DNA of 64,000 nt, taken from assembly GCF_000497125.1 (NCBI RefSeq), contig NC_090603.1, positions 930,001 to 994,000 on the forward strand. The letters run 5' to 3'. Shown here in pieces: positions 1-62,058 of the stretch. The position numbers were made by a program, and so were the translations under genes. Numbering within the stretch: position 1 is the stretch's first letter; each line of letters opens with the position of its first letter. Under the pieces are notes generated by a model that saw only the letters and a program-made list of their open reading frames with translations, searched no databases and had not been told where the DNA came from. Source of the stretch: Spironucleus salmonicida (Eukaryota).

Positions 1-630
1 CTGGTTGATTCACCAATAGGATTTAGGTGTCCAAAATGTGGGGTATAGAATCAAGAAGAATAAGAATCCGTCGTAACTATCAGCTAATCTCTTATTGACT
101 GCGATAAAGTTCCAGAATTTATCATTGTCAAGGCCAATCGTCTTATGTTTGACCCAGTGCTGTAATAGCCTTTTAAATTGAGAACAAGAATTACTAATTG
201 TGAATACTTTGATTTATCTAAGCTGGTTAACAGATAAGACGTTTAATAAAAGAACTAAATAGAATATCCTATCGATTAATTATTAGAATTAGGTATTGAC
301 GCTGACACTGCTTCATTAGCTATGATTCAATACAACGGAAATGTGGAACAAATAGCCAATGATTTCTTTAATGGAAATTTAAATATTTAACAGTAAGATC
401 AAGATATTACTGAAAAATTAGCACATGCCAAAGAGTTTGATCAGGAGTTAAATTATTAATTACAATGTGTTGTATTCCATTTAGGCGGTAGCTATGACCG
501 CGGTCATTATACAGCGCTTATTAGAAATGGCAATGGATGGATAGATTGCAACGACTAGGTATTTATTTAGAAAGACGAAATCGACGTCGATCTGAGCTAA
601 GGAATACTTTATTTTTACAAGAAAGTATGA
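1..630 (+). CDS. Ubiquitin C-terminal hydrolase (USP, Ubp14/USP5-like with UBA insert), 3' part only
   Basis: Frame 1 is open with TAR=Q. UBA-like PIDQLLELGIDADTASLAMIQYNGNVEQIAN, His box YQLQCVVFHLGGSYDRGHYTA...WIDCND, ends ILYFYKKV-TGA at 628-630. Confidence 0.85.
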
Positions 631-759
631 TGTAAGTGATAATTTTTACCTTTTACGATTATCTTTCTTGCTCGACTTTTAACATCCTTAAAAATTTTAA
701 ATCTCAAACTCTACTTATTATATATCTATTATTATATTTATTATTCCTTTCCTATAACA

Positions 760-9308: not shown

Positions 9309-9338
9309 TTCGTAGAGTGTAGACTTATAACTATTTAA

Positions 9339-10460
9339 ATGCTATCAACAAACTCCAAGCCGCAAATAAAACGATATAATGAGATTTCGATGGTAAAGCA
9401 GAAGAAATCCGTATTTATAGGACTCATACTATTGTTAGCTACTCTAATTGGAGTCGGCGTTGTAGTTGGCTCAGTATTTATTGCTAAACATATACGCAGG
9501 GTTAAAATCCCTACGGAATCTTTAGTTGACGATAACGAATATTTTGGATACCGTAATGCTAAAAAATTTCTAACGGCCTGGTCACCATCATCAAACTCCA
9601 TTATTGCAGGATAGCCAGCGTATAGGTCCCTTCTAACAGACCCAAAATAAATCCAAATTTTGTCAAAATTTGTTGAGAAACACCAGTTTCACTCTCTGTT
9701 CGTTTATGGGGGCTGTGTATAATGGGATTCTCCATCTTGGGTACGGAGCCAAATCCCGTATCAGGAGTCACTGCGGAAGTTCTTTGAGAAGTTTCCCGGA
9801 TAGAAGCCGGGGCTGATGGTATATCTAAATGATATATCATCTAACTTTACAGCATATGAGAATGTCTAGTATTTTGGATAAGCGCTCAACACTTTTAATT
9901 CTAAACAGCTAGGCACGTAAAAGGTATCACAGGTGTATATTTAGCTCAGGCCTCAGGACGAGGGACAAACACTACTGTCCTTAGAGACTGCATATCTATT
10001 GAAGCGCATTGTTGGTGAAACCGTGGAGGTTTTACTCAATATACATTCACAAGTTGTGGGTCAAAGCATTGATAGCGCCTTCAATGTCTATGACCAACTG
10101 TATATAAGCCAACTGCTGGTTGGCGAGCCCAAACCGGTATCGGTTGCAAAGATTTTAGGACTAGCAAGAATATCAGTAATCATTTTTGATTCGTAAATCA
10201 ATGAATTTCAACAACGTGAAGCAGAAGTATCCCTCAAGGCAAGTGGGGTTTCGACAGTATGGTAAATGCTAGATGCCTCTGGTCCTGCATTTGAAGTACG
10301 GGAAGAAACGGTGAAAAATGTTCAGAATATTATTTAGGCAGTCCAAACTCCCACAAACTCCTTTGGGTTCAGCAGCTATCTGGAGTACTTTATAGCATGC
10401 TACGGTATGGAACCTATTGATTCTGATGAGGGGTTCATGATCGACCTTTTTCTACCATGA
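9339..10460 (+). CDS. Single-pass membrane protein, hypothetical, copy B
   Basis: Mirror of 4628-5749; TGA at 10458-10460. Confidence 0.75.
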
Positions 10461-10475
10461 ACAGTGAACATATTG

Positions 10476-12506: not shown

Positions 12507-12565
12507 TCTGGATTTAGAAAATATATACTATAGTGTCCAATGCGTGCCAATTCTACTCCATCTAC

Positions 12566-13252
12566 ATGCTGCCTAACTTCGGCACACGTCAGCTCAACCA
12601 GCTTGAGAGGACACTGAAGGTTCTCTCCACACCGCTCACCAAGCAGCAGCTAGCATACCGTCAGGGGCCACGAGGTACAAAGATTCCATATCTTGAGGTG
12701 TCGCTAGCCATCCAGCAGGCGAACCAGGCCTTCGGGCCCTGCGCATGGAGCTCCGAGATCAAGAATCTCCAGCAGAACTACCTTAAGGAGGACGGCGACC
12801 AGTTCCGCGTGTCCTTCTCCGCGACTGTCCGCGTGTCCCTCGAGAACGGTTGCTTCCATGAGGACATCGGTCAGGGAAACGCCGAGCGTCGCTAGCTCTC
12901 CGAGGCGATCGAGCACGCCCAGAAGGGTGCGGTGTCGGACGCCGTCAAGCGTTGCCTACGGTACTTCGGCGACGGGGTCGGCAACCGCATTCTCAAGGAC
13001 GGCGGCCGGGACTTCAACGTACCTACACCCAGAACCGGCACGATACCATGCATCTCCTTGTCAAACCACTGGTAGATCTAGCTACGAATTTACTTTCTCT
13101 TAAAACCCACTAGATCTAACCCATGCCCCCATTTGCCTCGTTCTAGAGAACATCAGAATCAATCAAAACAGACACCTCCCCGCAAGACACTATATCGCCA
13201 CAGGCAGGCTATAGAGACCTCCTCACCTATCCTTCCTTTAAAAACTCAGTGA
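12566..13252 (+). CDS. RAD52: Rad52/Rad22-family protein, copy B (228 aa, alternative C-terminus)
   Basis: Same Rad52 domain as copy A. One nt is missing at ~13020 relative to copy A, then an unrelated tail runs to CAG-TGA at 13250-13252. Confidence 0.85.
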
Positions 13253-32200: not shown

Positions 32201-35200
32201 TTAATCTGCAATAACAAATGATTGATACCGATATTCTAAGAGATGCCTATTCTAATTTACATTTTGCATGTTAGAAAATGAACGTAACGAAGCATTTAAT
32301 TACATAATACATCCTTTCAATATTTTTTCACAATTTGATGAACTTTTGTTACTTTGTAAAACTTAAGGAATTGAAAGCTTAATTGCTGAAAAAGATTAAA
32401 ATAACACCATTCTATATTATGGGTTACTATACTCAAACTATTCTCCAAATGTTCTCATAAAATATTAAATTCTTGATTCGTTGACGTTAGCACCCGTTAA
32501 AAATATATCTGATTTCTCTTCTGTTGTAGTGTTTAAAATATTATTGAAGGGTAACATAGATTATATTAGCTTAGGCTGGTTTAAAAGGGTATCTGCTAAC
32601 TTACCTAAAGAAAATAATTGCAATTACCCTCTGAAAATATGCAATTCTTGATAACTTGTATTTAACATACCTTAATATAATGGTAAATAAACCATATAAA
32701 TATTACTAAAATTAATAGAATTTTATGCTTTTTACTATGCAGGTAATGGTAAACTGGATGAAATAGTATTAATATAATCCGAGTATTCAATTTAAAAATT
32801 AATCAATGCATTATTTAAAACCGTAACATACATTTAAGGACACATTCTATATAACTAAATACATTAATAGGCTAATTAATAATTCGAATCCATTTATTGA
32901 ACTATTTGCTCATTTGATAAGTCTTAATCTTTAACATTAACAAAATAACACTAAAATCCAGCAAAAATAATCGAAAACATAAATACAGTTATATTTCCAA
33001 ATGCTACTCCTATATTTGAACCAGATGAATATACAATCTAAGTCAAAAATTCATCAGAAATTTCATAGTAATAATTTTAAAATAAGTATGATTTTGCTGT
33101 GAGTGATTCCCTTAAATCTAAAAATCCATATTATTGGAACAAAATAGTAGCATTTGCCATGACTTATCTAATAGCAAATATCTCCGTGATCTAAAACATT
33201 TAACTACAAAAATCAAATAATTCTTAAAATAGAACGACTATAAATTTTGTTGACTATTGTTAAATATGTCTAAGCTATCTACTAATATTGAATTTGGTAA
33301 ATATTTAATCAAATTCAGTTTAAGTTAATGATTTTTTATCTAATACACTAATATCATCTGAAAGTATTTACTAAAATTTCATAGTACTTGTAAAGTCATT
33401 AAATAAGTATCTTAATGAAATAATATTTTCAACTACTACTTAATAGTATTGACAATATAATTGTAATAAATCAATACAGTCTGAAATAACCAATACAATG
33501 GCATCAAAAGGTTTAGGTGTTACTAAAAATTCTTAAATCATGGATTTATATTCGAAGAAATCATCTTATGAGCCATTTTGATAAATAATTACATAAAACA
33601 TTCCCGGTAGAATTTATAGTATGTTATCTGAAGAAAAACTAAAATCCTATGAGCCATTTATAACTTAAACAGGAATACCAATTTAGTTTGACGATATCTC
33701 AAAAATACAATCTAAAAGTTATTAAACAGCTATAGAATTATATTGTTAGAAATATAAACCAATTTGATCTATTCTAGCAGAAAATAGTAACAAAATTATG
33801 TCAGCTACATATTTCCACCCTTGCGAATTCAAACATGTTTTTTGTCTTAAATATTATGAAATATACACAAAACTAGATAATTATTAGGGTATTTTAGATA
33901 CAATTAAATCTTCTTTGACTATAATTTCATTCTCCACGTTCTAAAATAATATTTCTGGTTGAATATCAAAAAATCGATACAAGAATTAATCACAACTACT
34001 AATTTTTTTATTGATATCTGCATCAAAGAAATCAGACTATAAATATGATCCCATTGTTTCTTTCATTGTAGATACAATTTAATTTAGTTTACTAGTTTAA
34101 AATTTATTTTATTACGCTACAATATAACAAAATTAAAGAACTGCTTGCTCAATTGGTTAAGATGATGAAAACAAAAAACGTGCAATTTACTATGGTATGA
34201 ATAAAGAGTTAGTAATTGAGAGCTTCTTGTAAAGTAACTCATATTCACATTATTAAAAATAGAGTTCTTAAAATCTAAATATATTATCTCCATTAACATC
34301 CAATCCTGAAAATTAGAGAGTATTTTTACACTAAATAGTCATAACACATTGATCTGTACTTGTTTATACTAATTCTGGTAGAATATACACAAAATTAGCT
34401 CCTGACTTTTCGGCTTGTACTTTTATAGATTATAGTTTGCTCAATATATCTAAACTAGCTAATTCTAAACCAGTTATGAGAATGATTACTCCTGTAGCTG
34501 CTAAACTACTTATCACATCAAGTGCATATGAAGATATAATATGAACATGTTCGACTTTACGCTATAGAAAGTTGGATATAATATCTATAAAAAGGCAATA
34601 TGTTAAATGGTAATAATATTTATCTGTGACGGGAGTGATACACGCAACTTAAGTTTAAATATTCATTTATTCTAATATTTTAGAGATATACTTCTATAAA
34701 ATCATCTATGTAATTCTTAATATTTAAGGACTATACAAACTAGCTACTTTAATAAATCCATGAGATTATTATATATACCCACCATTTACAAATATATCAA
34801 TTTTTGGTTAATACTTCATTACAACTTCTACCTTTTAATTTTAATATACAGAGTTTTTTGTTTCGTTAATTTATTTTCTTAATGCAAAAACTAGCTAATC
34901 TAAAGGCTTATTACAGTAGGGAATAACAAAATCTAACCAAACCGAATTAGCTTAGAAAGAAGATAAAAACGAATCTAGAAGAGAAATAAAATATATAATA
35001 CTTTACGTCTATTCTGGCCCTATACCTTAAGATGCACGTAGCATTGCTAAAATAATAAAATCTTCCGCATTAAACCCATCATGTAAAAAGTCACGCTATT
35101 TGTTGTCTTACGACTGAGCCTCACTATCTCCAAATAAATCATCATCCAATTCGCTATCAGATTAAGACTCATCAGAATCCAAGTCATTTAGCATATCAAA

Positions 35201-38200
35201 AAGTCCTTCTTACTATACAGTATCTTGTTTAACAATGTTAGACTTTTTCTATTGATTTAAATTCTATTGTCTTTAAAACTATTAACCTACTGGGTATGAC
35301 TATAAAGTTGATGATAAATCAAAGAATAAATAATTTTCAAAAGAAGTAAGCATTGACAATTAAGCTTGTCTTAATGCAATATTGATATCGAATTCATAAA
35401 CCTTTTCTTCTGGGTTACACTCTTATTCATAAAGTACTTTAAATTACTGTAATGCATGTTATAAAAACTGTATTTAATTATCTTTTTTATAGTTAAACGA
35501 AAGTATATTCTTAAATATGTGCATAATTACCTAAGAGCAAATATGAAATGAAATATTTGATGGATAAGAGATTAAAATTTACTAAATATTAAAATCATAC
35601 GTTGAATTAATTTTTTACTACCAATATAACATATGAGTTTCAAGAGTAGCTAATACAACTTTTTATAATACTGGTGTAGTAAGATTAATATAGATATCTC
35701 TTAAAGATCTATAAATTAGAGGATATGCAAACTTAAAATAAGTTGCATTAGACTGTATAATTCCATCTATATAATAACATCCATATGGCGTACCTCCTTC
35801 AGTTTTTGCCAAGAAATACAAGATATTGAACATAGAATCAGGAAACCCTAATTAAGTTAATAAAGTACACAAAGTAAGATTAACATCATCTGTTAATTAG
35901 GTCACAATTGCTGCTTTACCAGCATATTTAGATTTTTCTAATAATGGGGTCGAATGAGAATCATACCACATTAAGTCTAACAGATATGTTATTTGTAAAT
36001 CTTTAGGGTAAAATTTTCTTATTCTATAAAATGCATTTTAAATTTTAGTTTAACCGCGAAATATATCATAGACTTAATACACAGTTTCCCATAGTTTATC
36101 ACGTACAAATTTTCTCTATGACAATTGAACCGCATTAGATGCTGTTGTGTAACAACCTGTTAATAATCCTCTTAACTATTTAATTGCTTGGCTAAACCCT
36201 TCTTATTGTTCTTATGATAATGGATTTAGTTATATATTAACTGGTTATCCCTCTTAGTTTAATTCTAATGCAACCTCATTTAACAGTTAAACCCAACCAC
36301 CATAAGTGTAAATTTACCAATGCAAGGACACCATTTAATTTAAGGAATCTGATGAATTTATAAGCTACTAGGCTTAATACGTAGTAATTTAATTTTAAAA
36401 TAAGCTTTCAATAATTGTAGTCTTCTGAATATTCAAAAATGCTAATAATTCATTTTCTAATTCACAACCAATAATATTTGATCTAACTGTGCTAATTATT
36501 TTCTGATTGAAGAATTAGTTATTATAATAATCTTTATAGTATACAACCGTATAATTTTCTTTGACTTTCATATTATTAGGGCCTAAAATAAGAAAATCAT
36601 TCAAATCTCTTTTTAATTTTGGTGTTTCATTTGATTGCATAGACGGTAATATGAACTAAGTCTCAAGAATACTATCTAAGTTACCTTCAGCAATAATTTT
36701 ATTAATCTAGGTTTATTAATATGCTATTAATTTATCTGATCTAATCTTGAAAAGGGAGTGACAAGTATTTAAATATATAAAATCGTCATATGGTTTTAAT
36801 ACATCTAGCATATCACTAGTTCTTACATCGTCTGAAATTTTAAGATTTAGTGACTAAATAATAATATTAATAAGTGTTGCACTTACACTAAAATCTTTAG
36901 AATCAATTTTAAGTAGCTCGTCAATTTTATGTCGCTAAACAATTTCTTTAGAAGAATGCTGAATAGTTGAGACATTATTTTCGTATATAGCAGTTTTTGT
37001 TAAAAATATTAAGTAGAAAATATTATGTTGGTCTTATAAAAATTACAATAAGTTTAATGCCACTGTTACAATCTTAATATTTTGAGTAAAATTAACAATA
37101 ACTAAGGTAGAAACCTTGATGGCTTCAATAAGTTACCTTTTAATTTCTTCTAAGTTAACCATGGATAACGCTTAATCTAACCATTACGAAAAACTATTTT
37201 AAATATTATTACAAGTAAAAACTAATCTAGATGCTAACTAGAATACTGGTTATAGCGAACAAAGTCGTGATAATTATGTAGAATTTGTTTGGTTTACATT
37301 ATTTGATAAAATAACTTCCAGTGTTTCTTTATTTAAAGTAACTATATCTCCTTTATTCTTTAGTTGCTAAATATAAGAATCTTTTTTAGCCTATGTAACA
37401 AATAGTATCTTATCAATAGTATCAAAAAACTGTATATCTGTGTTACCTAGTAGCTATAGTTTTAAATTATTAAGTAACATTAATGTTTAAATAGAGTAAT
37501 TTATAATTTCCTCGGCTTCTTAAAACGCATCGTTTAAATTTTCTTCTTTAAATAAGATGGTTCTCTCAAAAATATGAATTTTAATATGATTAGATTTAAA
37601 TATTGGCAGCATTGACGTTTACTCTATTTCTTTAATCAACCTCTTAGTGTCAATAAGCTAAAATTCATCTAATTTTAATGGCTTAGGATAAATTATACTT
37701 TAAGTTAGTAAGGGGTATTTTTACTTAAAAACTTATTATTAGTTACTACACTATATCCAATCGGTATAACAAATAGAAAAATACTCCTTTGTCCTACCAA
37801 ATACATCTATAATTAATAAATCAAACCAATTTTGTACATTCTATAAAAATGTAAAACATTACTAATATGCCAAGCTAACCCTATTCGTGACTAAACTCTA
37901 ACTAGTAAATACTTATTTGAATTTTTTCTAACTGGCTATCAGCTAAGTATGCATAATATTATAATATGTATTACTTATATTCCCAATAGGTATTTCTTCA
38001 TACACCTCTAATATATCGTTCATTTGACCATATAATTCAAGCCATTTATCTTTATTATATGTAAACAACTTGCAAATTTCGTAAATTTCGCCTATTTCTT
38101 ACGTAGACGTAAAAGAAGTCTAGTTTAACTTTTCATTTACCTTATCCAAGCAATTATTGCATATTTCTAATACTAAGACGAAATAATCTGATAATCGGTT

Positions 38201-41200
38201 GCTATAAAGATCAAATAATATTTTATCTTGAATCTACAATGATTATAATAAAGACGTCAGGGAAATTTTAAAACTACTGTAGTAACAGATATTTGGCAAT
38301 GATAAAATCATAAAAGTGTTATCATAAACAATTTTCATGGTCTCCAAAAGCTTGTTAATCTGTTGATTTATAAGCATTTAGCAGGTTTCTGGAGGTGCTT
38401 AACCAGATTGAAACTCCTCTATTACCAAATCAACAAGTCCTTTGTTGCGTAAAAAATCACTAAAGGGCTTTAACTTTAGTTTAATTTACTCCTCCTAGGT
38501 TCCAGTTATTTTCACCATTTTTTAATTTTATGAAATACTTTCAACTTGATATTCATAATCTGAATGTTTCTGAACAATTTCTGGCATTAAATCTACCTTT
38601 TTATTTAGAAATTAAATATGAATTTATGATTTTTGGATGTGTAAAGTGAAATATCTGACAAAGATTTCAAAATACTTAGTTACTTTCTCAGCAGATACTT
38701 TGCTTAGCTTTACAAGCTTTTAGAGCAAAATAGATGGTTCATAGTAGATTGCTTCAGCAAGTTTTGTTTCAATTTTTATATCAAACTCAAATTCTTCATC
38801 TGCTTGCTCATTGAGCTCAACCTTGTTGCCTACAATTGTAATGAATTTCTACTTCGAATGCGAATTTGCAGCCTTTCCATCGGGTTTAATAAATCCTAAA
38901 TTAAAAGGATTACCTTGGGAGCCACCCTAAAGTGGAATATTATTATAAGCAACTTCTAAATATGCTTTGTAAGAGAGATTTTATTTGTCTAAGAATAATT
39001 CTCGCTCGTTCAAAGTTAGCTAATTTTAAACAATACCACTTTTGCAGTTGTAAATAAGAATGTCAGAGAATTTTGGCGAGGATGAATAGAACATTGAAAG
39101 CTATGATATACAGGATTCTAGGTTCTATGCAATTGACAGAGGGTCTGGACAGATTTTGATACCAGAAACAAAATTATCTGTCATTTCTGGAAGGGCTTTG
39201 AACTCCCATTTTGAGAGGCATTCAAGTGTTTTAGATGCTATTTCCTTGTTAATAGGAATCTTGAAATCTGAGTATTTATTTAATGAGTCTATATCTTTCT
39301 AGATTGATGACATAAAACTTTGCTCATTTGGTGTCAAATGTAAGATTTTTGTCAGTTCAGATTTGCTCTATAAGTTGATTGGTTAGATTTAACTAGTGGA
39401 TTTTTTCTTATTTCCCCCATGAATAAGTGCTAATAAGAAGTAAAACCATTCAGGTAGTGCATTTTCGTATAGCTCATTAATGAAAATTCTGAAAAATTAG
39501 ATTTCCATTATTTTGAATATTTAAACGTATTTCGAATGAGTAGACTAATAACTCTCTTCAGCGAATTTATCTCGCATTTCAAGTGACGGTGACCGCCCGT
39601 GAGATGATTAATAATTATGAAGCCTGAAATTCAAATTTTCCAAAACTGAATTTGCAAAATCTGAAATAATCTAATCTACTATATGTGGGCTCAAAATTTG
39701 ATAAATAACTTTATGTGTATTGATTAGTTTCTCCGAAAATGTATCCTTAAATGACAAAATTGAATAGTCATTGTTACGCACTTTGGCTCTCAAAAAGAAT
39801 TACTCAATACCTTTATACGAAAAATGTTAAATAAAGCTCTCTGATACTCTAACACTGATTTCAGGTAAAGTTCCCGTCCATAGGATATCAATAAAATGTG
39901 TTGCTCTGGCCATAATGTCATTTTTGTGCTAATCAAAGATTGTTGCTATATAATGCTATAAAGTAACGAACTGCTTACTAAACAAGTTGTTTATATGCTT
40001 CTCGATTTTTACCTATGCTTTCCTAAACTGTTTTTTATGCTCATCGTAAATATGTAAATTATCTGCTCCCGGCTCGTCTATTCCAAAGCAATACTGGCTA
40101 ATTTTCTTTACTTAGAATATCTTATGTGAACTCCATAAGAATAAAACCAGAAAATCTGCACACCAATGCAATTAATGCTACTCGTCATTATATGCCTTCT
40201 GCATTATTTACATCTGCGCATCTGTCAACTAGGCGTGCTGTACAAATTCACTACAAACCTAATCGCATATATCTTAAAAATTAAATATAATACTGTTTTA
40301 GTTCAGCTATTAGAAATTGATCCCTTATATCACCTAATTGCACAAAATTACTGCAGCAGATAAATTTTATTGTAATGAATTTGCCAAGTTTAACGGAACG
40401 TGATACGCATTTTTAGAGCGCAAATCTGCTTGATTTCGTACTAAAATCGCACGCTAATTTTCTGAATAGTTGGCGGGAATCGTCATATCGTGAAGACGAT
40501 TTTAGCGCAATGTCACAACTGCATATTCCGTGAAATCATCAGTTTGCTAGAACTGTTACCTTGTTATATCAATAGCTAAATTGCCAAAATCCTGAATAGC
40601 CTGCTCAAACTTCGCTTTCAGCTTCGTATTCTGGAGCTGCTGGTTAAATATTTTAATAAGGTATTCTTGGGAGGCATTTGACTAGCAATATTAGGAGATG
40701 AACTGCTGGATGTTGATAAGCGACGTCTATGTCTTGTACTGTCCGAACTCGTCCACGTTGTTCTCGTCATCTACTAGAAGCACCACGTCCTGGAAGATGA
40801 TATTTGAAGTAGAAACTACTTTGTTGAAGTTATTCTCCGAGATGAAAACGAGGAACTTGTCGTCGTCAATTTTCTTCAGAACGTCACAAGGGACCCATTT
40901 GAGGTTCTTTCGGTCCGAAATATCCGTCCAGTACTACGTAAAGCCAGATCCTGAGTTTATATCTGTACGCTGGTCAGTAATTGTATCCAATACCTAGTCG
41001 ACCATGTTTACAACTGCTACGAAATTTTCGCCTTTCTTATAGGGCGCAAGTTCTACTGGAATTAACTTGATTGCAATTCCCACGTCAAAAGCTTTACTTG
41101 ATAATTTGTCGCCCGATTGAAATGTTTCCTGGACCATTTTTGGCGGCTTTGGTGCATCCGGGATATCCTAAATTTATGGTATCGTGTAGGATTACTTTGT

Positions 41201-41308
41201 TGAGCTTTGCAGCGGTTTTGGAGTAGTAGTGCGCGATGATTACCGCTTTGAGAGAAGTTCTTTAGCAGCAGGTAGATTTTCTAATTACTTTGGTACATTT
41301 ATCTTCAT
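26243..41308 (-). CDS. Highly divergent dynein heavy chain (5021 aa), probably axonemal-type
   Basis: No in-frame TGA found over 15066 nt in a manual scan. Dynein landmarks occur in order: WVPCDVLK..DKFLV, SDMLDVL, QMVSLHWQIY, YAGKAAIVTQLTDD, ITIPTHFV, IDFTSIGL, GFDAPT, DSWLNI, FTLVTAFLRN, GEGVFL. Ends GAG-TGA. Confidence 0.8.
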
Positions 41309-41422
41309 TGTGAAGAGTTAAAAAATTATTTTTAGTGAAAATTATATGTGAAATGGTATAATAACATGATCGGTATTTATACAGTATATATATATATTAA
41401 TAATTAACTGTAAAAATTTTTA

Positions 41423-42426
41423 ATGCTACCTCAAATAAACAAGATCAAATTCGTACATTAAAAGATAATATTAAAAAATCAACAATAGAATATGTTTAAA
41501 TAATAGATAACACCTAGAATAAGTCCTATTTTTAATAATTAAAATGATATTATTTTATTAAAAATATAAATGATGCACAACTAAATTTAAGCTCTGTTTA
41601 CACAATAAACCTAATTTTCTGTAAATCCAATTAATTTTATAATAAATAATAAGGCACATTTTTAAAAGTTTACGTCATTAGATCTGTAATTTGATGAATA
41701 CGAAAAATTTTAACTTCCATAATAATTTTTTTGCAGAGAAATTTGCGATATATTCATTAATATAAATTATCTAAATATATCTTCGACTCCACTTATACCT
41801 ATAATTCCACCATTTCAAAATTTTCCACTTCTTGAATAATTGATTCTTCACAACTGTTAGCTTCAAAATATTCGTTTTTTAGAAAAGTTAAATGACTTAA
41901 AGGTATTAAATTTGTCAGATAATATTATAACTGATTTTAGACCAATTTTGGCATAAAGGAGTTTAATGCATTAAACATATCTAACTGCTAAGTTAAAGAG
42001 ACTGATTTTTTATCTAAACTGACAAACTTGAAATACTTAGATATCTCCAATAATAAGAAACTATCTTAGCTTACCGGATTATTAAAAATTGTTAAAAATC
42101 TTCATACATTGAATATGTCAAGATCTATCTTATCACCATTGTGGTTTTGTATGATTTTAAATGAAAATAGGAATTCTGAAAAAATTATGATTGATACTGA
42201 TTTTAACAGTTTTAAATTCATAAGAAATCGTCTTTTAAAACATATGAAAGTAAATGTATTAGATTGGAAATCTTAGAGTATAAATTAGTCGGATTCATTG
42301 TATCTTTTTGCAATATATAAACGGTTTAATGTGATGTATGAAAGTATCCAGTAACTGCGGCTTGCGAATGATATACGATTTGCAGAAGGAATGTTTTTCT
42401 TAAAGATATTGGAAGGTATTTATTGA
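41423..42426 (+). pseudogene. Leucine-rich repeat protein interrupted by a 1-nt frameshift
   Basis: LRR units LEQLILHNCQL and LKVLNLSDNII in frame 2 continue as ALNISNCQV and LKYLDISNN in frame 1 after ~41966. Pseudogene or sequencing indel. Confidence 0.7.
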
Positions 42427-43333: not shown

Positions 43334-44806
43334 TCACTTTTGACTTTTGTCTTTATTTTTACGTTTACTGCTAGAATTAGTTTTTGCAGCATCCTTATAC
43401 ACAAAAAGAAATTTAATAATAAATAAAATTAATAACATAGTGCTAATACAGACACCTACACCTTCTGTTAGTGATAGTGAATAATAATAATTAGCGGTAT
43501 CACCATTATTTCTAGATGTGCTCAAAATAGTTATCAAGGCCATAATTAGCTTAAATACCGCAAGCATATAGTTTAAAGTGAAGAAACTCTCAAAGGAACT
43601 TAGAATAGAAACTATTTCTGGGATAATAGATGTGCTTCCAGCTACACAGGATAAAAACAAATTCTTAACTTAACTGCTGCTATATTCGGAATCTTTATCA
43701 GTCGAGAAGATGAACTACACATGAAATTACACAAAACATATCAATATTATTGCATTAACAGCAACTGATACAATAACCACAGTTAGAATTAATTTGCAAA
43801 CACGCTTGTAGTACCGTTGCTTATAGTGTAGAGCCGCAGCCGAAAAGAAGCAATAGCTCAGGGCAGTGGGAACGACTCTAAAAAACTATCCATAAAGTGA
43901 GAAGGAAAACAAGTCGTAAATAGCATCTTATCGTTATGAATCGTTTGTATATGTCTTAAAAATTTAAGCATGTGAAAGTAATACGGACATTGGAAGAACT
44001 ATTAAATAACACGTTCTAGGAAGTCCAAAACGAAGCATCTATATTAAGATAGAAATTTATTTTTTGTCACGAAACCCTTTAAATATCGCCATAAGATCCG
44101 AATTAAAATAATTTCGTATAGTAACACCAAGCAACGACCGACCTTCATTGATACCAGCCATCCAAACACCCAAAGAGAATTCAGTAACAACAAATGCTAC
44201 AACTGTGGGCCAATTATTAACTGGGACATCAGCAATGAAGTATAACATGGATTCTACAGCAACTCGAACAAGAGCACTGATACATAGATGACAAAATGTT
44301 ATGAAGGTTCTTCCTTCTGCTGTAAATTTTATTATGTTAACATTACTTAAAACATTGAAAGCATATGAGCAGCCAACTTATACTACGATTGAATAATAAT
44401 ACGATTTTGCTACCCCAAAAATAGTTTATGTGTACACAGCTATTAGAGAATTGACTATAAGAAACACAGGTAGAAGGAGGTAATATAGATAGAATAGAGA
44501 ATGATAGTATGCCTTCATTTCTTCATAATTTTTGCTGGCAATGAAGTCGGCAGCATGTAACGCATAACTGAACATTAACTGATTTGGTAGAGTTTATCCT
44601 AAGATTAATTTTAAATTATATGTCACATTTATAGCGTAAATACAGTCCTATCCAAAGTTAATTTGTTAAAAGTAGAAAGAGACTAGATCTGCAACTGCCA
44701 ATAGTAGCATTCCAAGAAACATTGGAAAACACTATTCTACTACAATCCATAAAATATTAGTACTAAGGATACGTACTGAATGCGCTGATAATTCAGATAG
44801 ATCCAT
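43334..44806 (-). CDS. MATE/MOP-like multi-pass transporter, 490 aa
   Basis: About 12 hydrophobic segments; IVVEQCFPMFLGML and FTAEGRTF resemble MATE motifs. Joins track ORFs 44057-44248 and 43334-43660; ends AAG-TGA. Confidence 0.65.
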
Positions 44807-44920
44807 TTTATCGAACAAGACTATATGTTATATTAATTTAAATAAAACATATAATTTGCTATTTATTTTTTATGTAATTTAATAGAATTGAACCAATAAT
44901 AAAAAACACTACGAATACAT

Positions 44921-45433
44921 TCATGCGAAGAAGCTCTTGAGCCAGTAGAGATCCGCCTGGAAAACAAACTTCCTCAGCCGCTAATATGCGAATTCCTGGC
45001 GCTTTATGAGAGTGAGGTTAGTGCGTAGGTGCACCTCGCTATCCACCAGGATGCTTTGAGCGAGAAACTGCGGCAGAGACGTCTGGATCTCGAACGAGGT
45101 CTCTTTGCACCCAGCCCATGTCTGGTCTGGGATTTTCACGGATCCTTCCGCAGTGACAAGCTGGATTCCGTCATAACCGTCAGAGAGCAGCAGTGAAGTG
45201 CTCTGGGAAACGATACGCGGTGATTAAATCTAGGGAGCCGTAGTATCTAGGATCTCCAGCTGATGTGCAGCCCTGACCTGCTGGAGCAACGTGCGCGCAC
45301 CTTCCGAGAACAGAGCCAGCTGCGCAGTTTGATAAGCAATGCAGTACTCTAAGTCCCACGACTCAGATGTTCCGCTGCATAGGATATCCAGAATCTCCGC
45401 CGTGAGATCACTGGCGATCGCGTTTGCTTCCAT
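44921..45433 (-). CDS. Hypothetical protein, 170 aa
   Basis: Extends track ORF 45230-45433 through TAR codons to TGA 44923-44921; GC-rich codons. Confidence 0.65.
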
Positions 45434-45475
45434 TCTTGAGAATATGTAGTAATATATAATAGTTTCCCTGGTTTA

Positions 45476-47446
45476 ATGGCACTATACGTCAGCTCGTCAG
45501 AACACGAGTACAGGGCCCTGGGTGTTCCGCTAGCGCGATACAGTGCCGAGACTACTAAACTGGTCTAGCTCATGCGTTAGCCTCTGTCCAGAAGTTCGTG
45601 CGTGCAGATCGCCGATTTAGTGAGCGCACTCGGCGTAACCCTGATCTCGGCGCTCGATATTGACCCGGTATCCATGCAGATAATATCCAGTTACTGCATG
45701 TGCGCGTGCTTCCCGTGCCAAGTGGTGCACCAGGCCCTGGAGCGGTATGGGCATCGAGACTTCTCCTTGGTGATCGAGGAGCGTGCAGATATCTTCCTGT
45801 TCCACGTAGCCAACGGGGTTATAACTAAATCTACCAGCTTCGATAATACGCGTAGCGAGATTCGGACCCTTCTTAAAACCATCGCACATAGCGTAACGCG
45901 GTATGTCGTAGTGGAAGGAAGGGCTCCTGCAGTTCGGAAGTATCTGTAGGAGCATATCGAAGCTCTGAATGAAAAGTAGATTCTGGATCTCACGGCTGAC
46001 TGGGCCATGGCATCCCAGGTAGCTACGGAATGCGATAGAGTCAAGATATTGCTCAGCGGGCAGCCAGTTGACGCTAGATAGTTTATTGTGCTGGCAGGAG
46101 CTGACGTACGGATACAGAAGGGTGCCTTCTCGGCAGTCATAAACTGCTAGCCCGGGGATATGATAATGCAGTCCGGTTGCACGTACTTCAACCACACGCG
46201 GAAGGCACCGCTGGAGTACATCGACACATATGATTCTTCATCGGTCCTAAACCTCCATACCCACCAATTCAGCATGCCTTTTGCATTCTAGGACGAGCAG
46301 CTGCACGCCTTTATCCACCGGGCGCTTGACATGTTTGTTCTGGTGCAAGGTATCCCGTTAGATCTAGCAGACAGCCTGCGGCGCTCAAGCTCGTGCATCG
46401 TGGAGGACATGATCGTCTTTGAATCATGCCAGACTTACTCAGACGGCGTGTTCACCCTCTACGGTATCTACGACAATTCTCTTGTAGGAGTTGACTGCGT
46501 CGCCACGGTGGAGGGGAGCCTTTTCTAGTTTCTACGAGATTTTCGCATCCAGAACATGGAGGGCCTCCCCTTCCTGCACGTTCACAAAGCTGTGGCCTAC
46601 GGCGGGTTCACGCTGTTCGCCCGGCAGGCAACAGTAGAGACCTTGCAGGAATATTCCTGTCACAGCGAGCGGGCGCTGGTACTGCATGATCTGGTCCAGA
46701 AGCTAGCGTTGCTACGACAGTACGGCGTTACCTTTGCCAACCTGTCTGCTAGGAACGTCCTGGTCACACCTAGTGGCAGTATGCTATTTAACCAGTTCGC
46801 ACTGGAGCCTGGCCCAGAGGACGTGACCGTACGCCAGCTAGGGAAAATTGCCCAGGTGATGCTCGAGTTCCATCCTAGGGGCTTCTCCCGCCACGAGATA
46901 TTACCGCACGCAACTTACCTCCAGAAGCAGTTCCTTATGCAGGCAGACCTGCCCAGTATCCGGCTGGAGGATCTGCTCGCAAACCCCCTGTTCATGTCTG
47001 ACGACTAAAAGGCCCAACTGATGGAGCAGTACCAGAGGTCCAAGGCTGGGTCCTGCCGCTACTTCGAGCGTCTCACTGTCGAGCTCGGCATCGACCCGGT
47101 AGGAATTGTGTGTGGTCTGAAGGAATTCACCCAGACTGGACGCAATGGGGCACATGGTATGGCCGGCGGTGGGGTAGACAACGCGATGCGGTTCGTACGG
47201 AACCAGCTTGCCCACTTCAGCGGCCGCCACGAATACACCTTCAGGCGGAAGCCCGTGCAGTTTTCGGCACCAGGAGAGCTGCTGCGCTTCCTGGAGACTC
47301 GAGTCGGAGGAATATTCCAGGTCGTGTACGACTGCTACCTGCTCGAGCGGTACGGTATGGAGCTGTTCCGCAGGCACAGTGAGGGAAAGCAGTCAGATCT
47401 GGGCAAGCCTCTTCGCTCTGGTAATGAGGGCAACCGTCTGGTCTGA
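45476..47446 (+). CDS. IRE1/RNase L-family pseudokinase + KEN ribonuclease protein, 656 aa
   Basis: Track ORFs 45602, 46331, 46556 and 47021 form one frame with TAR=Q. Kinase-like part: GVFTLYGIYDNSLVGVD, FARQATVETLQEY, VTFANLSARNVLV, LEDLLANPLF. KEN part: VDNAMRFVRNQLAHF, PGELLRFLETRVGGIFQVVY. Confidence 0.78.
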
Positions 47447-47656
47447 GTCGGTGCCATCGTGATCTGAAATCGGCTCCTGGGATGGGTCGAGCACCGGGAC
47501 GCCGCGCACGAGCGGCTCGCGGGAGATCGCGTACTCCTACCTCGCTGGAAGCTTTGGAGTACGAATAGCAGTTAGGGCATCACTGCTAACTATCGGCTGG
47601 GAGTCGGCCATGATCGCGGAGACCCGCTGCGCGAATGCGTGTCCAGAGGCGTTCAT
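47393..47656 (-). CDS. Small hypothetical protein, 87 aa
   Basis: MNASGHAFAQRVSAIMAD...AKRLAQI-TGA. Overlaps the 3' end of the KEN gene by 54 nt; divergent from the 47680 gene with a 23-nt gap. Confidence 0.4.
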
Positions 47657-47679
47657 TCGGATTTTGGAGCGGCCCCAGA

Positions 47680-47937
47680 ATGAGCAGGAAGGCCCCCGCA
47701 TCAACCTACGCGAAGCCCAACTCGCACTTCGGTCGCTTCCTGCTGGACACCTATCGTACGTATGATCTGGATGCGGTGCGCGATGACTCCGACAGTGAGG
47801 TCGCACTAGCGATGGCTATACCATTGGAGCGCCTTCACTAGCACGAGACCATAGTGCGGCGGCTTGGCCCCAGAGGAAAGGTTGTTCCGTGCTCACCCTT
47901 TGCCTGTATACGCTGGCTGGATCGAGTGCTTGAGTGA
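47680..47937 (+). CDS. Small hypothetical protein, 85 aa
   Basis: MSRKAPASTYAKPN...WLDRVLE; ends GAG-TGA, 17 nt before the next ATG. Confidence 0.5.
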
Positions 47938-47954
47938 CGTCTTCTCCACTCCAA

Positions 47955-49100
47955 ATGCCAGAGGTCCTAGTGATGGAGATCGGCACCAAGGACCCGGCCA
48001 CCTCAGATTTCGTATCGCGCCTGCTCTTTAACTTCCAGGTGATGGACGACAATAAGGCAGCTTAGCAGCGCAAGCTGGTTGGCCGGGTACAGCCGTTCGT
48101 GACCGAGGCCGAGTACGACTTCACGCGGCCATACTTTGAGAACCTCCTACTTATCCAGAGGAATGACGGCAAAGAGCCATAGGCGAACTCCCCTATGCTG
48201 TATCGGCACTACTCGGTCTAGACTGCACCGTTCGGCTGCCAGCACTACCTTCGCGCATGCGAGGTGGTCTGCCCCCAGTGTACCGCCCCGTATCCCTGCC
48301 GCTTCTGCCACGACGAAGAGCAGGACCACGAGCTACCCTTCCGCGAGGTAGCCCGGGTGGTGTGCTGCAGCTGCCAGCTTGAGCAAGACCTGCACCAGGT
48401 CTGCGATGGATGCGGATAGGTCTTTGGGGACTACTACTGCGAGAAATGCGCCCTCTTCGACAGCCTCGGCAACCAGGCCAAACCCATTTTCCACTCCGGC
48501 AGTCTCTGCAGAGTCGGGGTGGCCGCGTACTACCGGGACTGTACACTCTGCGGTCAGTGTATTCTCCGAGAGTGCTTTGATTCCCACGTATGCAAGCAAG
48601 AGGACACTTGCCCAGTCTGTCTGGGAACCCTCCGTGACTCCATCTACCTAAAATCTGACCTGCCATGCGGCCACCAGCTGCACCAGCACTGCCTCCAGGG
48701 GTGCTACGACGACGGCAACTACTCCTGCCCGATCTGCAGAAAGAGCACATTTACATCTTAAGATTTGTTGTAGTTTAAAAATGAATGGATTAGATGGTCT
48801 GGTAAGTAAAAAGTACCATTTATACTTAAAAACAAATATTGTATAGTAACTTGTAACGATTGTAATAATTAGTTTTATGAAAAATGTGTGCATTATGGTT
48901 ATTTATGCCCCAAATGTGATAGTACAAATACGTTTGAAAAAGAGTTTTGTACTAAAGCAATATTTATTTCTAATAATAATAATAAAATTAATAGAAAAAT
49001 TCAATATAATTATTTCATATTTTTTACACATATAATAGTAGATAAAAAAGTTTTCGCCTTAATTTTAGTAGTTTTAATATTTTTGATAAATTTGAAGTGA
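47955..49100 (+). CDS. RCHY1: CHY zinc finger + RING-H2 + zinc-ribbon E3 ligase (Pirh2/RCHY1-like), 381 aa
   Basis: GCQHYLRACEVVCPQC...YPCRFCHDE, YYCEKCALFD, CPVCLGTL...LPCGHQLHQHC...CPICRKS, VTCNDC...CPKCDSTNT. Confidence 0.92.
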
Positions 49101-54753: not shown

Positions 54754-55995
54754 TCACATTTAAATTAATAACAATAAAACTTAATCTGGTTACATTTATT
54801 AATTAATACAGCTATTAATAAATTATACAAAAGAATTGTTAACTAAAACCTTATTCTGTTATAAATATTAGTCTAAAATCTTTTATTATTAGATAGAAAA
54901 TAAAATCCTACCAGTAAACATCTCAACTGTAAGTATCTTTAAATCCACAAAACTTTCATGCAGCCTTTCCACGAGATAACAGTTTGGGGTCTAACAATAC
55001 ATGCAGAACACCCCAACTGGGTGCTCGAATATCTCAAACCGTTCGTCGCAATCATAACAACCATATACTGCCTAGTTAGAATAGAAGAAGTACATATCCT
55101 GCAGTTTTTAGAACTAGTATTTATAATCATCTATCTACTCCTCACAGAGCATTGACTTCCTGCAGACAGGGCACTTGATGTCATTCCCCTCCAGTATCAT
55201 CTACTAGCAATGTAAGTGGATACAGTGGGAACACTTGAGCGCTATCTTTGGCTTGTTACTGTTATCGAGGTCCTCTAGACAGCAACAGCAATTTCCATAA
55301 CTTTTCCGGCACTGGTGGTCTGCGAAGTAGTTCATATGATAGCACCAGTTGCATTTATCACAGTAGATAGATTAAGCTTATATACCAATTGCGCACTGGT
55401 TTTGATCCTTTGAATGAAAGATCGGTTTATTCTCATCCCCAAGATCGCAAATCAGCCGGCAGTCCAGACAGCAGTATTTTCCAAACTACAGTCCACACAT
55501 TGTACAATATTAGCTAAATTTCTATACCAAATCACATTATCTACATTTTATCACATTTACATCATAGCGTCTAAATTCATGATCTGTTTCATCCGAATGG
55601 CACATACGGCAACCGAAAAAATCCATACAATCAGGGCATTATTATTCGCAACCACAAATATAGTGTTCACAGCCTATTTAGTTTGAAAGAGAAAATTTTA
55701 AGAAAATTTATTCATCAAAAGGCAATAATGTAAATTCTTTAGAAAATTTTGCATTTTGAAGTTGAAACGGAGTTAAAAACGAATTATAAATTGTTAGTGG
55801 TGAAAAGTGATAAATTTTAGAAAGTTCAGTATCCCAATAAGCAGCTCTATCTTGATCGTAAACATCATAATAATAAGTCTTAAGCGTAATATGTGACAGT
55901 ATATCAGTATTAACGATAGTACCTGGTTATAATTTAAAAATAGTACCAATAATTACTGTGTTATGGTGTCTTGAATTAAAATTATCAATGTTCAT
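54754..55995 (-). CDS. RCHY1: Second CHY-RING (Pirh2/RCHY1-like) protein, 413 aa
   Basis: IGCEHYICGCEQQCPDC..FFGCRMCH, CCCCLEDL...LKCSHCIHLHC...CPVCRKS, GCYDC...CMYCQTPN. Confidence 0.88.
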
Positions 55996-56099
55996 TAATA
56001 TTTAATGATATTTACTATATTTTATGTATAATATATATATTAAAATATTTAACAAATATACTCTAATATAATATAATGTTTCATGTTTTATTTTTAATT

Positions 56100-56315
56100 A
56101 TGAGACCATCGTTATTACGAATCATGCATAGAGCAGTAGATTTCCCTCCACTAACGTCGCCATCTAAATCTATACGCATTAAACGAAGTTATTAACCAGC
56201 TATTTAAAATGATGCAAGATTTGATTTCGACTAAATTTTTGAACATAAATCTGGATTTATAGGTACTATTAAGCGAAGACCAACTGGTAAAATAATAGAT
56301 AGATTATAATGGTGA
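56100..56315 (+). CDS. Small hypothetical protein, 71 aa
   Basis: MRPSLLRIMH...RLQW-TGA; higher GC than the AT-rich flanks. Confidence 0.35.
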
Positions 56316-56752: not shown

Positions 56753-56809
56753 TATTTAACATTTGCTATTTTACCTGTATTCTTATATATAATTAAATAT
56801 AAATATTAT

Positions 56810-57535
56810 CTCTACCTGATAAGCACCGGGGCGGACCTGCACTAGTTTTAGGGAGGCCAGTTCATACGGCTTGGAATCAGGGGAGAGGGGCACCAGCTGG
56901 ACACAAATATTTATGCCCACCAGATAGATCACTAGCTTTGCCTGAGCCAGATGGACGCTAGTGTTCAGGGCCGTTGGTAGTATGATGTAAGCATCTCACG
57001 AAAGCAGTTTCGCAGGCTTAGTGCTAGAACTGTAGTTGTTAACAACTATATTATGCGTTTCAATGACGACAGTATGTTTGTGATGTAATAATATAAGATG
57101 CCTAGTACTGAGAGGTCCATCGCGATCGAGGGACGGGATGCAGTATTACGATGTGGTTCATATACGGTGAGTAAGACTGAACTGGATATTAGTATTAAGC
57201 AACTTCATAGTGAGGGGCGTGTTCTCCTCATGAATGCTGATCTCTAACTGGTATTGGTTGAGGAAATTGATGATGTTCTGATGGTTACAAAACTCAGGCT
57301 CCCACAAATGATTCCATCTGCGTTCTATATTGCAGAATCATCTGGTGGGCTGGACGTGTTCATTGGGTGCAAGACAGGCGAGATACTTTAGGTCCGGCTA
57401 TCATAGATGCGGAATTTGACTGATATCAAATTTATTTCTACTGATTCTGACTTTGCCGTTCATCTTAGTGTTGTTGGTGGTATGCTGTATTGTTTGAGTG
57501 TGCTAGGCTCTATTCGTTCTTACTCCCTGTAATGA
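56810..57535 (+). pseudogene. 5'-truncated duplicate of the beta-propeller gene's 3' end
   Basis: Identical to the last ~241 codons of 61331-63748 but begins at the repeat edge; the first in-frame ATG is ~140 nt inside. Confidence 0.75.
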
Positions 57536-57618
57536 TAATATTATATGTATATCGGTTTATATTTTTTGACCACTATCGCAAACCATTTTGAATTGAATTC
57601 TTGTTACCACTCCTCGGA

Positions 57619-58209
57619 ATGCAGTTTGTCGTCGATTGCGCTGATCACTTACTCGGTCGCCTCGCCTCTGAGGTAGCCCAGTAGCTCTTAGCTGGCCAGA
57701 AAGTAGTACTCCTCTGCTGCGAAAACGTCAACATCTCTGGTGGCGAATATCGTAACCTCCAGAACTATCTCTGCAAGTTCAACAAGCACTCCAACTACAA
57801 CCATCTCCGTGGTCCCTTCCACTTCCGTACCCCTGCTTATATCGTCCACAAGACCATCCGTGGTATGATACCTCACAAGACTGATCGTGGCACCGCTGCT
57901 ATGGCCAACCTTAAGGTTTTCGAAGGTATCCCTCCCCAGTATGCTAAATGCGAACGCCTCACCATCCCCTCTGCTCTCCGTGAACTTCGCCTCAAACCTA
58001 CCCGCCAGTTCTGCGTTCTCGGTGAGGTCGCTACCAAGCTCGGCTGGAAGCACGCTGAAGATGTCGCACACTTTGAAGACAAACGTATTGCAACTGAAGC
58101 CAAGATGAATGCCGATAAAGCTAGTATTGCTGCCAAAAACAACGCCGTTCTCGCTAAGAATGCTAAATACGTCGAAGTCTCCAAGAAGCTCGCCGAATAC
58201 GGGCTGTGA
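57619..58209 (+). CDS. RPL13A: 60S ribosomal protein uL13 (L13a), copy A, 196 aa
   Basis: VVDCADHLLGRLAS, CENVNISG, RGPFHFRTP, IRGMIPHKTDRG, LKVFEGIPP; strongly biased codon usage. Confidence 0.96.
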
Positions 58210-58221
58210 TTACAGATTTTC

Positions 58222-60653: not shown

Positions 60654-62058
60654 TAATCAAAGACCGTATTCGGCGAGCTTCTTGGAGACTTCGACGTATT
60701 TAGCATTCTTAGCGAGAACGGCGTTGTTTTTGGCAGCAATACTAGCTTTATCGGCATTCATCTTGGCTTCAGTTGCAATACGTTTGTCTTCAAAGTGTGC
60801 GACATCTTCAGCGTGCTTCCAGCCGAGCTTGGTAGCGACCTCACCGAGAACGCAGAACTGGCGGGTAGGTTTGAGGCGAAGTTCACGGAGAGCAGAGGGG
60901 ATGGTGAGGCGTTCGCATTTAGCATACTGGGGAGGGATACCTTCGAAAACCTTAAGGTTGGCCATAGCAGCGGTGCCACGATCAGTCTTGTGAGGTATCA
61001 TACCACGGATGGTCTTGTGGACGATATAAGCAGGGGTACGGAAGTGGAAGGGACCACGGAGATGGTTGTAGTTGGAGTGCTTGTTGAACTTGCAGAGATA
61101 GTTCTGGAGGTTACGATATTCGCCACCAGAGATGTTGACGTTTTCGCAGCAGAGGAGTACTACTTTCTGGCCAGCTAAGAGCTACTGGGCTACCTCAGAG
61201 GCGAGGCGACCGAGTAAGTGATCAGCGCAATCGACGACAAACTGCATTCCGAGGAGTGGTAACAAGAATTCAATTCAAAATGGTTTGCGATAGTGGTCAA
61301 AAAATATAAACCGATATACATATAATATTATCATTACAGGGAGTAAGAACGAATAGAGCCTAGCACACTCAAACAATACAGCATACCACCAACAACACTA
61401 AGATGAACGGCAAAGTCAGAATCAGTAGAAATAAATTTGATATCAGTCAAATTCCGCATCTATGATAGCCGGACCTAAAGTATCTCGCCTGTCTTGCACC
61501 CAATGAACACGTCCAGCCCACCAGATGATTCTGCAATATAGAACGCAGATGGAATCATTTGTGGGAGCCTGAGTTTTGTAACCATCAGAACATCATCAAT
61601 TTCCTCAACCAATACCAGTTAGAGATCAGCATTCATGAGGAGAACACGCCCCTCACTATGAAGTTGCTTAATACTAATATCCAGTTCAGTCTTACTCACC
61701 GTATATGAACCACATCGTAATACTGCATCCCGTCCCTCGATCGCGATGGACCTCTCAGTACTAGGCATCTTATATTATTACATCACAAACATACTGTCGT
61801 CATTGAAACGCATAATATAGTTGTTAACAACTACAGTTCTAGCACTAAGCCTGCGAAACTGCTTTCGTGAGATGCTTACATCATACTACCAACGGCCCTG
61901 AACACTAGCGTCCATCTGGCTCAGGCAAAGCTAGTGATCTATCTGGTGGGCATAAATATTTGTGTCCAGCTGGTGCCCCTCTCCCCTGATTCCAAGCCGT
62001 ATGAACTGGCCTCCCTAAAACTAGTGCAGGTCCGCCCCGGTGCTTATCAGGTAGAGAT
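60654..62058. repeat. Inverted repeat 2, right arm
   Basis: Reverse complement of 56808-58212. Confidence 0.97.
60657..61247 (-). CDS. RPL13A: 60S ribosomal protein uL13 (L13a), copy B
   Basis: Mirror of 57619-58209; identical protein. Confidence 0.96.

Follow-up and report, generated by a model that had tools for sequence, protein, structure and literature searches.

A candidate soluble pseudokinase with a highly diverged KEN/HEPN-like domain in the diplomonad Spironucleus salmonicida

The gene, its coding evidence and its relatives

We analysed a 64,000-nucleotide stretch of the Spironucleus salmonicida genome (contig NC_090603.1, positions 930,001 to 994,000; hereafter the window), focusing on the gene at window positions 45476-47446 of the plus strand. 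An original prediction, made from the sequence alone, had proposed that this gene encodes a soluble counterpart of the kinase-RNases IRE1 and RNase L. Our own reading, to which we assign a probability of roughly 55%, is that its product is a soluble pseudokinase-KEN/HEPN protein, highly diverged and present in the Hexamitinae alone.

Translated with NCBI table 6, in which TGA is the stop, 45476-47446 forms one open reading frame (ORF) of 656 codons. Nine in-frame TAR codons (eight TAG and one TAA) are read as Gln; under the standard code the same frame is broken by nine stops, which leave four pieces of at least 60 aa (residues 36-157, 273-350, 352-510 and 512-656), just as the original prediction had described. 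GC content at codon positions 1, 2 and 3 is 0.60, 0.39 and 0.67, and three-base periodicity keeps a single phase from about 45521 to 47470 and is gone in 47471-47920. Since this periodicity is unbroken, the N-terminal part belongs to the same gene as the rest. Direct support for the table-6 reading comes from Q351, a TAG codon whose alignment column holds Gln in all three lineages. The 656-aa ORF is a real gene and not a chance open frame. Annotating the four standard-code fragments as separate genes was rejected on the same two grounds, the continuous periodicity and the match of TAG-encoded Q351 to Gln in homologues.

The protein is letter-for-letter identical to UniRef entry V6LLR2 (SS50377_14508 of S. 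salmonicida), annotated only as "hypothetical". Four runs of one study, whose RNA nature is our guess, each yield one contig that covers the whole ORF without joints (X1, 44921-48748; X2, 44941-47927; X3, 43462-48748; X4, 44923-48748); the contigs are silent on transcript ends, strand and expression level. Their freedom from joints argues against introns or an added exon, although it is no proof of a single transcript. The gene and the features of its first half are as follows.

45476..47446, plus strand: whole gene, 656 codons and TGA stop under table 6 (translation, identity to V6LLR2, codon-position GC, periodicity)
45476..46360, plus strand: N-terminal region, residues 1-295, without a recognisable family, presumably the regulatory or sensor part (no Pfam match; BLASTP)
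45599..45655, plus strand: hydrophobic stretch, residues 42-60, the sole 19-residue window above Kyte-Doolittle 1.6 (1.84; contains Asp47)

A phmmer search of 1,835,955,588 representatives at E<=1e-3 returned three proteins: V6LLR2 itself and two relatives, namely Hexamita inflata P0003 (733 aa; E 1.9e-20, query residues 295-625) and the fragment P0004 (318 aa; E 2.9e-15). H. inflata carries three full copies, and the family alignment therefore comprises five sequences (Spironucleus, the three Hexamita copies and P0004). Word-indexed and profile-based word searches found nothing beyond the three known proteins, and a metagenome scan gave 342 pattern matches with no confirmed relative. No Giardia protein appeared among the relatives found by phmmer, the word searches or the metagenome scan. 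Judged by these searches, the family is probably confined to hexamitine diplomonads. Against the Hexamita protein, BLASTP aligns residues 296-622 only (E 1e-27, 27% identity); nothing better than an E-value of 0.54 pairs the N-terminal parts, and residues 1-295 are not alignable.

Several versions of the gene exist in S. salmonicida itself. A second copy or allele, SS50377_28330, carries G446V and M571T, and an older assembly holds two fragment genes with D123G, I129T and M571T. The contigs differ from the window at two synonymous sites. Variant sites 46812, 47187, 47344 and 47350, taken from the contigs and the newer assembly, correspond to G446V, M571T and the two synonymous changes.

No Pfam family, ankyrin repeats included, matches residues 1-295 at E<=10. 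A Kyte-Doolittle scan, which was our only test of membrane association, found neither a hydrophobic N-terminal signal sequence nor any hydrophobic segment linking the N-terminal region to the kinase fold described below; a multi-transmembrane neighbour used as control has 68 windows above 1.6. The borderline stretch at residues 42-60 is more likely a buried element than a transmembrane helix. The Hexamita stretch that MAFFT places opposite it is not hydrophobic by eye, in a part of the alignment that is unreliable (the BLASTP E-value of 0.54), and the hydropathy maximum of the Hexamita homologue over 19-residue windows is 1.25. The protein thus appears from its sequence to be soluble, and the absence of any convincing signal peptide or transmembrane helix that had been predicted is borne out, with residues 42-60 as a caveat. 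These results bear on the idea that the gene encodes a canonical membrane-anchored IRE1 orthologue sensing unfolded proteins inside the endoplasmic reticulum (ER) lumen. That one borderline window is all that speaks for a membrane anchor; the missing signal sequence, the missing hydrophobic segment ahead of the kinase fold, a Hexamita homologue with no window above 1.25, contigs without a joint that could add an exon and the replacement of every kinase catalytic residue make it very improbable.

The N-terminal region of the Hexamita homologue was also considered in its own right. A look-up of P0003 in a protein atlas gave no feature match, and its ESM-based atlas model is unfolded (predicted local distance difference test, pLDDT, 0.37). 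A low-confidence model of P0003 residues ~3-287 retrieves weak actin/MreB/HSP70-like (ASKHA) rows with TM-scores of 0.4-0.5, depending on the row. We treat these model-based rows as a lead only for the sensor region, and because the Spironucleus N-terminus cannot be aligned with that of Hexamita, the lead is not transferable to the S. salmonicida protein.

The kinase-like region and the C-terminal domain

The second half of the protein contains a series of short motifs that are conserved across the family.

46388..46999, plus strand: kinase-fold (pseudokinase) region, residues ~305-508 (structure model, Foldseek, N-lobe matches of a second fold search, VIA)
46484..46495, plus strand: VGVD, residues 337-340, with D340 at the expected beta3 lysine position (VIA range, model 11..92 to IRE1a 562..645)
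46640..46654, plus strand: TLQEY, residues 389-393, hinge-region motif (the VIA N-lobe range ends at model 92, which is residue 386 and IRE1a 645)
46733..46756, plus strand: FANLSARN, residues 420-427, catalytic-loop equivalent (family alignment)
46793..46819, plus strand: QFA (440-442, DFG equivalent) followed by P-G-P (445-447); Q440, F441 and P-G-P invariant, G446 being Val in the second copy or allele
46982..46999, plus strand: NPLFMS, residues 503-508, putative kinase end at the junction with the C-terminal domain; P504 and F506 invariant
47000..47380, plus strand: C-terminal helical domain, residues 509-635, KEN/HEPN-like (two structure models)
47198..47218, plus strand: RNQLAHF, residues 575-581, candidate catalytic motif of the HEPN/KEN type, closing a helix on its C-terminal side (alignment, structure model)
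47273..47332, plus strand: GELLRFLETRVGGIFQVVYD, residues 600-619, where conservation within the family is highest; G-E-L, E607, G612 and F-Q-V-V-Y-D invariant
47381..47446, plus strand: low-confidence C-terminal tail (residues 636-656) and stop codon, absent from homologues (alignment, structure models)

The original prediction had compared two peptides with IRE1, and both are present: GVFTLYGIYDNSLVGVD at residues 324-340 and FARQATVETLQEY at residues 381-393. With the kinase motifs taken by their standard definition, the positions of the beta3 Lys, the HRD Asp and the DFG Asp are occupied by D340, N422 and Q440. N422, which replaces the HRD Asp, is invariant in the family together with L423 and N427, and Q440 is invariant as well; the beta3 position is not Lys in the homologues either. 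These three replacements preclude an active kinase, and the predicted loss of all catalytic kinase motifs extends to the homologues. The invariant P-G-P directly after QFA implies a very short activation segment.

An AlphaFold2 (AF2) model of residues 295-656, built from the five-sequence alignment, shows a kinase-like order of elements followed by helices. Searched with Foldseek against 350,542 PDB chains, this two-domain model gave 10 matches at E<=1e-3, all of them kinases. Human IRE1 kinase-RNase structures take ranks 1, 2, 4, 5 and 10 (best match 6w3a_B, E 2.8e-4, 399 columns, 18% identity) and RNase L takes rank 3 (4o1o_A, E 5.5e-4, 401 columns). The IRE1 and RNase L matches span about 400 columns at 14-18% identity; the other four are plain kinases (RET, CSK, ULK2) aligned over about 260-275 columns. 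The Foldseek-independent search (VIA) covered 48,161 representatives, and kinase entries filled 49 of its top 50 rows; the only entries aligned across both domains were yeast and human IRE1. Both searches support, at the level of models, a protein-kinase fold in the second half of the protein, and they agree with the IRE1-like kinase region of the original prediction.

A rival explanation bears on these models directly: the protein could be a lineage-specific orphan unrelated to kinases or HEPN domains, with motifs that arose by chance and a model that is an artefact of a shallow alignment. The low or moderate confidence of both AF2 models, the empty hidden Markov model searches of Pfam and PDB with the window protein and the unfolded ESM-based models of the Hexamita homologue would all fit such an orphan. 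A random model, however, would not fill nearly all top VIA rows with kinases, every Foldseek match at the threshold is a kinase, and seven collinear conserved motifs stand at the places expected of kinase and KEN landmarks. We consider the orphan explanation improbable.

The invariant residues of the five-sequence alignment cluster in the collinear kinase-like motifs and in two C-terminal blocks, RN..AHF and GEL...FQVVYD. RNQLAH occupies residues 575-580 (nucleotides 47198-47215), as originally located, and the R-N-x3-H motif is not only intact but part of a longer signature, R-N-x2-A-H-F, in which R575, N576, A579, H580 and F581 are invariant in all five sequences. By chance, a protein of the same composition would be expected to contain 0.039 occurrences of RN...H. 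Further towards the C-terminus, G600-E601-L602, E607, G612 and F614 to D619 are invariant. In yeast Ire1, according to PMC3149027, the scissile phosphate is held by R1056 and N1057, and the residue that is key to catalysis, H1061, contributes at least 3x10^5-fold, compared with about 10-fold for Y1043.

Pfam was searched with all five family members. One of them, P0004, gives a sub-threshold match to PF06479 (Ribonuc_2-5A), with an E-value of 0.0031 and 18.1 bits; the match covers P0004 residues 233-313 and takes in both the RN..AH motif and the FQVVYD block. Nothing was found for PF06479 in E. coli and 14 control genomes. P0004 also matches two PADLOC models named Cas13a (139 and 166 positions; E 0.0014 and 0.002), which we take to be HEPN-domain pieces; composition shared with AT-rich organisms may contribute to these matches. 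The window protein itself has no match in PADLOC, and an NCBIfam scan returned noise only.

The C-terminal domain, whose core reaches a pLDDT of 76-84 when modelled in isolation, has helices at ~509-537, 541-554, 566-579, 599-609 and 613-635 and a beta hairpin at 585-596. Beyond about residue 566 the two AF2 models agree in their secondary-structure elements. In the part before it, the helix at 509-537 of the isolated model is split into 509-522 and 528-536 in the two-domain model, and a helix at 541-546 in the former stands against 541-554 in the latter.

The register of both domains can be compared with IRE1. VIA aligns IRE1a 562..645 to residues 305..386 (model 11..92); the beta3 lysine of IRE1a would then fall no more than two residues from D340, and the hinge would be at residue 386. 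On the model, the IRE1 chains run as far as residue 343, and H580 lies 57 residues before that end. In yeast Ire1, with H1061 as given in PMC3149027, the catalytic His lies 54 residues before residue 1115. Three independent alignments (the VIA N-lobe match, the chain-end distance and the Pfam match of P0004) agree on the IRE1 register. This agreement is compatible with RNQLAH at the KEN active site, short of a residue-level superposition.

Several results weigh against a pseudokinase-KEN/HEPN protein. The two-domain model is poor (mean pLDDT 42.7, predicted template modelling score 0.31), Foldseek TM-scores are 0.15-0.25, and the IRE1 alignments have TM-scores of 0.2-0.25 and a root-mean-square deviation of about 11-15 Å, with acceptable deviations in the N-lobe match only; the E-values for IRE1 are no more than two to three times better than those for plain kinases. 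Fold searches with the isolated C-terminal model returned no KEN or HEPN structure among their rows and no four-helix HEPN core. In sequence searches, none of the five family members matches Pfam Pkinase, and the window protein has no Pfam match at E<=10, whether the query is the full length, the C-terminal module or two sub-pieces of it. Four sequence and profile searches of PDB gave noise, with no IRE1, RNase L or kinase, and the PF06479 score of P0004 lies below the 23.3-bit cut-off. There is no invariant Tyr within ~20 residues upstream of R575, the nearest being Y529 at a distance of 46 residues, and a His partner of the Y1043 type was not identified. Finally, the S. salmonicida copies differ by four amino-acid changes (D123G, I129T, G446V and M571T), of which G446V alters a family-invariant residue. 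A homodimer prediction for the Hexamita module (residues 400-733, two copies) gave an ipSAE of 0.00 and an uncertain fold and weighs neither way.

Two further explanations turn on these C-terminal results. The protein may be a pseudokinase scaffold or adaptor, with a C-terminal domain that is not a nuclease and with RN..AHF and FQVVYD serving folding or partner binding. A supported kinase fold next to an isolated C-terminal model that matches no KEN or HEPN structure would suit a scaffold, as would the lack of a sequence search tying the window protein to any RNase family and of a Tyr partner for the His. Against it, R, N and H are invariant in all five sequences and are spaced exactly as in the catalytic triad of Ire1 (PMC3149027), P0004 has its sub-threshold PF06479 match and its Cas13a-named matches (presumed HEPN pieces) over the motif, and the Foldseek list is topped by IRE1 and RNase L rather than by plain kinases. 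On balance we regard a scaffold as unlikely.

Alternatively, the C-terminal domain may be a HEPN-type RNase that does not descend from the KEN domain of IRE1 and RNase L, fused independently to a kinase fold in diplomonads, so that the protein works like RNase L without being related to it. P0004 indeed matches the Cas13a-named models about as well as PF06479, and the listed KEN matches lack the hairpin and long helices of the C-terminal model. These PADLOC matches may, however, reflect the shared composition noted above, the kinase part itself is closest to IRE1 and RNase L in Foldseek, and the alignment keeps its register across the two domains as far as the C-terminal end of IRE1 from yeast and human, which leaves an independent fusion rather improbable.

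We therefore return to the pseudokinase-KEN/HEPN reading. The C-terminal domain, ~127 aa in length, is most likely a very diverged KEN (kinase-extension-nuclease, HEPN-superfamily) domain. Of what the original prediction said about this domain, the motif stood: it is invariant and lies within the sub-threshold PF06479 match of P0004, and these two results weakly support a KEN domain; the window protein's own sequence and its isolated C-terminal model did not lead to KEN or HEPN. The module as a whole is probably related, in diverged form, to the kinase-RNase unit of IRE1 and RNase L.

The surrounding window

The gene is separated by a short spacer from a divergent neighbour.

45434..45475, plus strand: AT-rich intergenic spacer of 42 nt, presumed promoter region (read from the sequence)
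44921-45433, minus strand: divergent upstream gene, on the other side of the 42-nt spacer from the start codon

Positions 44921-48748 form a GC-rich island of three genes (third-position GC 0.63-0.77, few TAR codons for Gln) amid AT-rich genes. TAA and TAG dominate the Gln codons of the AT-rich flanking genes; the uninterrupted table-6 ORF at 26243-41659 on the minus strand, which encodes 5138 aa, uses TAR for 421 of 540. A ribosomal protein L13-family gene is likewise of the GC-rich, TAR-poor type. Downstream, a GC-rich spacer of 508 nt (47447-47954) leads from the target gene to a CHY/RING zinc-finger gene; it has no codon periodicity and is covered by the same contigs. Possible short minus-strand ORFs lie near this spacer, for example at ~47393-47656, overlapping the last 54 nt of the target gene.

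The zinc-finger gene at 47955-49100 (plus strand) and another at 54754-56109 (minus strand) are paralogous CHY-zinc-finger/RING (Pirh2-type) E3-ligase-like genes within 8 kb of each other, one GC-rich and the other AT-rich. The contigs of all four runs depart from the window at exactly 48748, inside the first of these genes, and continue in unrelated AT-rich sequence. An abrupt switch from GC-rich to AT-rich sequence occurs at the same position. The break could be an allelic structural variant, the junction of a second copy or an assembly join.

The window also holds two perfect (100%) inverted repeats. In the first, arms of 4456 nt (2068-6523 and 8565-13020) are separated by 2041 nt, and an ABC-transporter gene and a gene of 430 aa are present twice. 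In the second, arms of 1405 nt (56808-58212 and 60654-62058) are separated by 2441 nt, and the duplicated content is the ribosomal protein L13-family gene together with the 3' end of a gene of 856 aa. Both could have arisen by recent duplication or by gene conversion, or be palindromic artefacts of the assembly.

Relation to known systems and proposed working

In architecture the protein resembles RNase L, a soluble protein in which a sensor region is followed by an inactive kinase fold and a C-terminal helical domain with R-N-x3-H (PMC4730318); its structure 4o1o_A also ranks third in Foldseek. Unlike RNase L, the window protein has no ankyrin repeats and no Pfam Ribonuc_2-5A match, its activation segment is far shorter, and the two proteins share 12-14% identity in model-based alignments. 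With IRE1 it shares the best Foldseek matches (human IRE1), the alignment across both domains that VIA gives for yeast and human IRE1 alone, and invariant counterparts of R1056, N1057 and H1061. It differs from IRE1 in having no signal peptide, lumenal domain or transmembrane helix (by the Kyte-Doolittle scan) and in the replacement of the catalytic Lys and both Asp, which makes trans-autophosphorylation impossible; moreover, no counterpart of Y1043 was identified, and searches with the isolated C-terminal model do not bring up a KEN fold. HEPN RNases, such as the HEPN domains of Cas13a, carry an Rx4-6H signature in an alpha-helical domain (PMC3710099). The window protein shares this signature in RNQLAH, which ends a helix with a pLDDT of 76-84. 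P0004 matches the two Cas13a-named models, which are presumably pieces of such domains. The window protein differs from these RNases as a eukaryotic fusion to a kinase fold, and its fold search did not recover the four-helix HEPN core. Because the PF06479 cut-off is not reached and both the IRE1 features and ankyrin repeats are missing, we do not file the protein as a member of these families; we treat it as a probable, strongly diverged relative that would work like RNase L.

The KEN domain has been traced to the last eukaryotic common ancestor (PMC3710099, in excerpt). PMC3218828 counts the IRE kinases with the classes "not found in excavates", which agrees with the statement of the original prediction that a canonical IRE1 unfolded-protein response is generally regarded as missing from Giardia-like parasites, and published descriptions credit Giardia with no physiological unfolded-protein response (PMC3218828 and PMC3084755). 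The three locus tags of the gene do not occur in the literature searched, a search that lay outside supplementary tables (kinome, orthologue). No publication joining "Spironucleus salmonicida" and "unfolded protein response" was found, and among the best matches listed in two wider searches, no paper on a non-Giardia diplomonad (Spironucleus, Hexamita) mentions IRE1.

The protein would comprise three working parts: a fast-evolving N-terminal region of ~300 aa without a recognisable fold, a degenerate kinase fold that is unable to phosphorylate and almost lacks an activation loop, and a ~127-aa helical domain bearing the invariant R-N-x2-A-H-F. By analogy with RNase L, which is switched on when a ligand makes it dimerise via the ankyrin and pseudokinase domains (PMC4730318), the N-terminal region may read a signal and promote self-association through the pseudokinase, which would pair two C-terminal domains. 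As happens in IRE1 and RNase L, R575, N576 and H580 could then cut RNA without a metal and leave ends that carry a 2',3'-cyclic phosphate. Since neither ankyrin repeats nor any other Pfam domain is found in residues 1-295, 2-5A cannot be inferred as the trigger.

We further propose, tentatively and as a possibility somewhat short of even odds, that the Hexamitinae keep a descendant of the ancestral eukaryotic IRE1 that has lost its membrane anchor and its kinase chemistry and has been rewired to a fast-evolving cytosolic sensor, in parallel to vertebrate RNase L. This would make it, after RNase L, the second soluble pseudokinase-KEN RNase of stress or immunity, arisen independently, and the sole KEN-family member known in Metamonada. 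A transfection system exists for S. salmonicida. If the pseudokinase-KEN/HEPN reading is true, the module would have survived in part of the diplomonad lineage in a rewired form and would offer a natural parallel to RNase L outside vertebrates, and a fish parasite would allow a direct test of regulated RNA cleavage in diplomonads.

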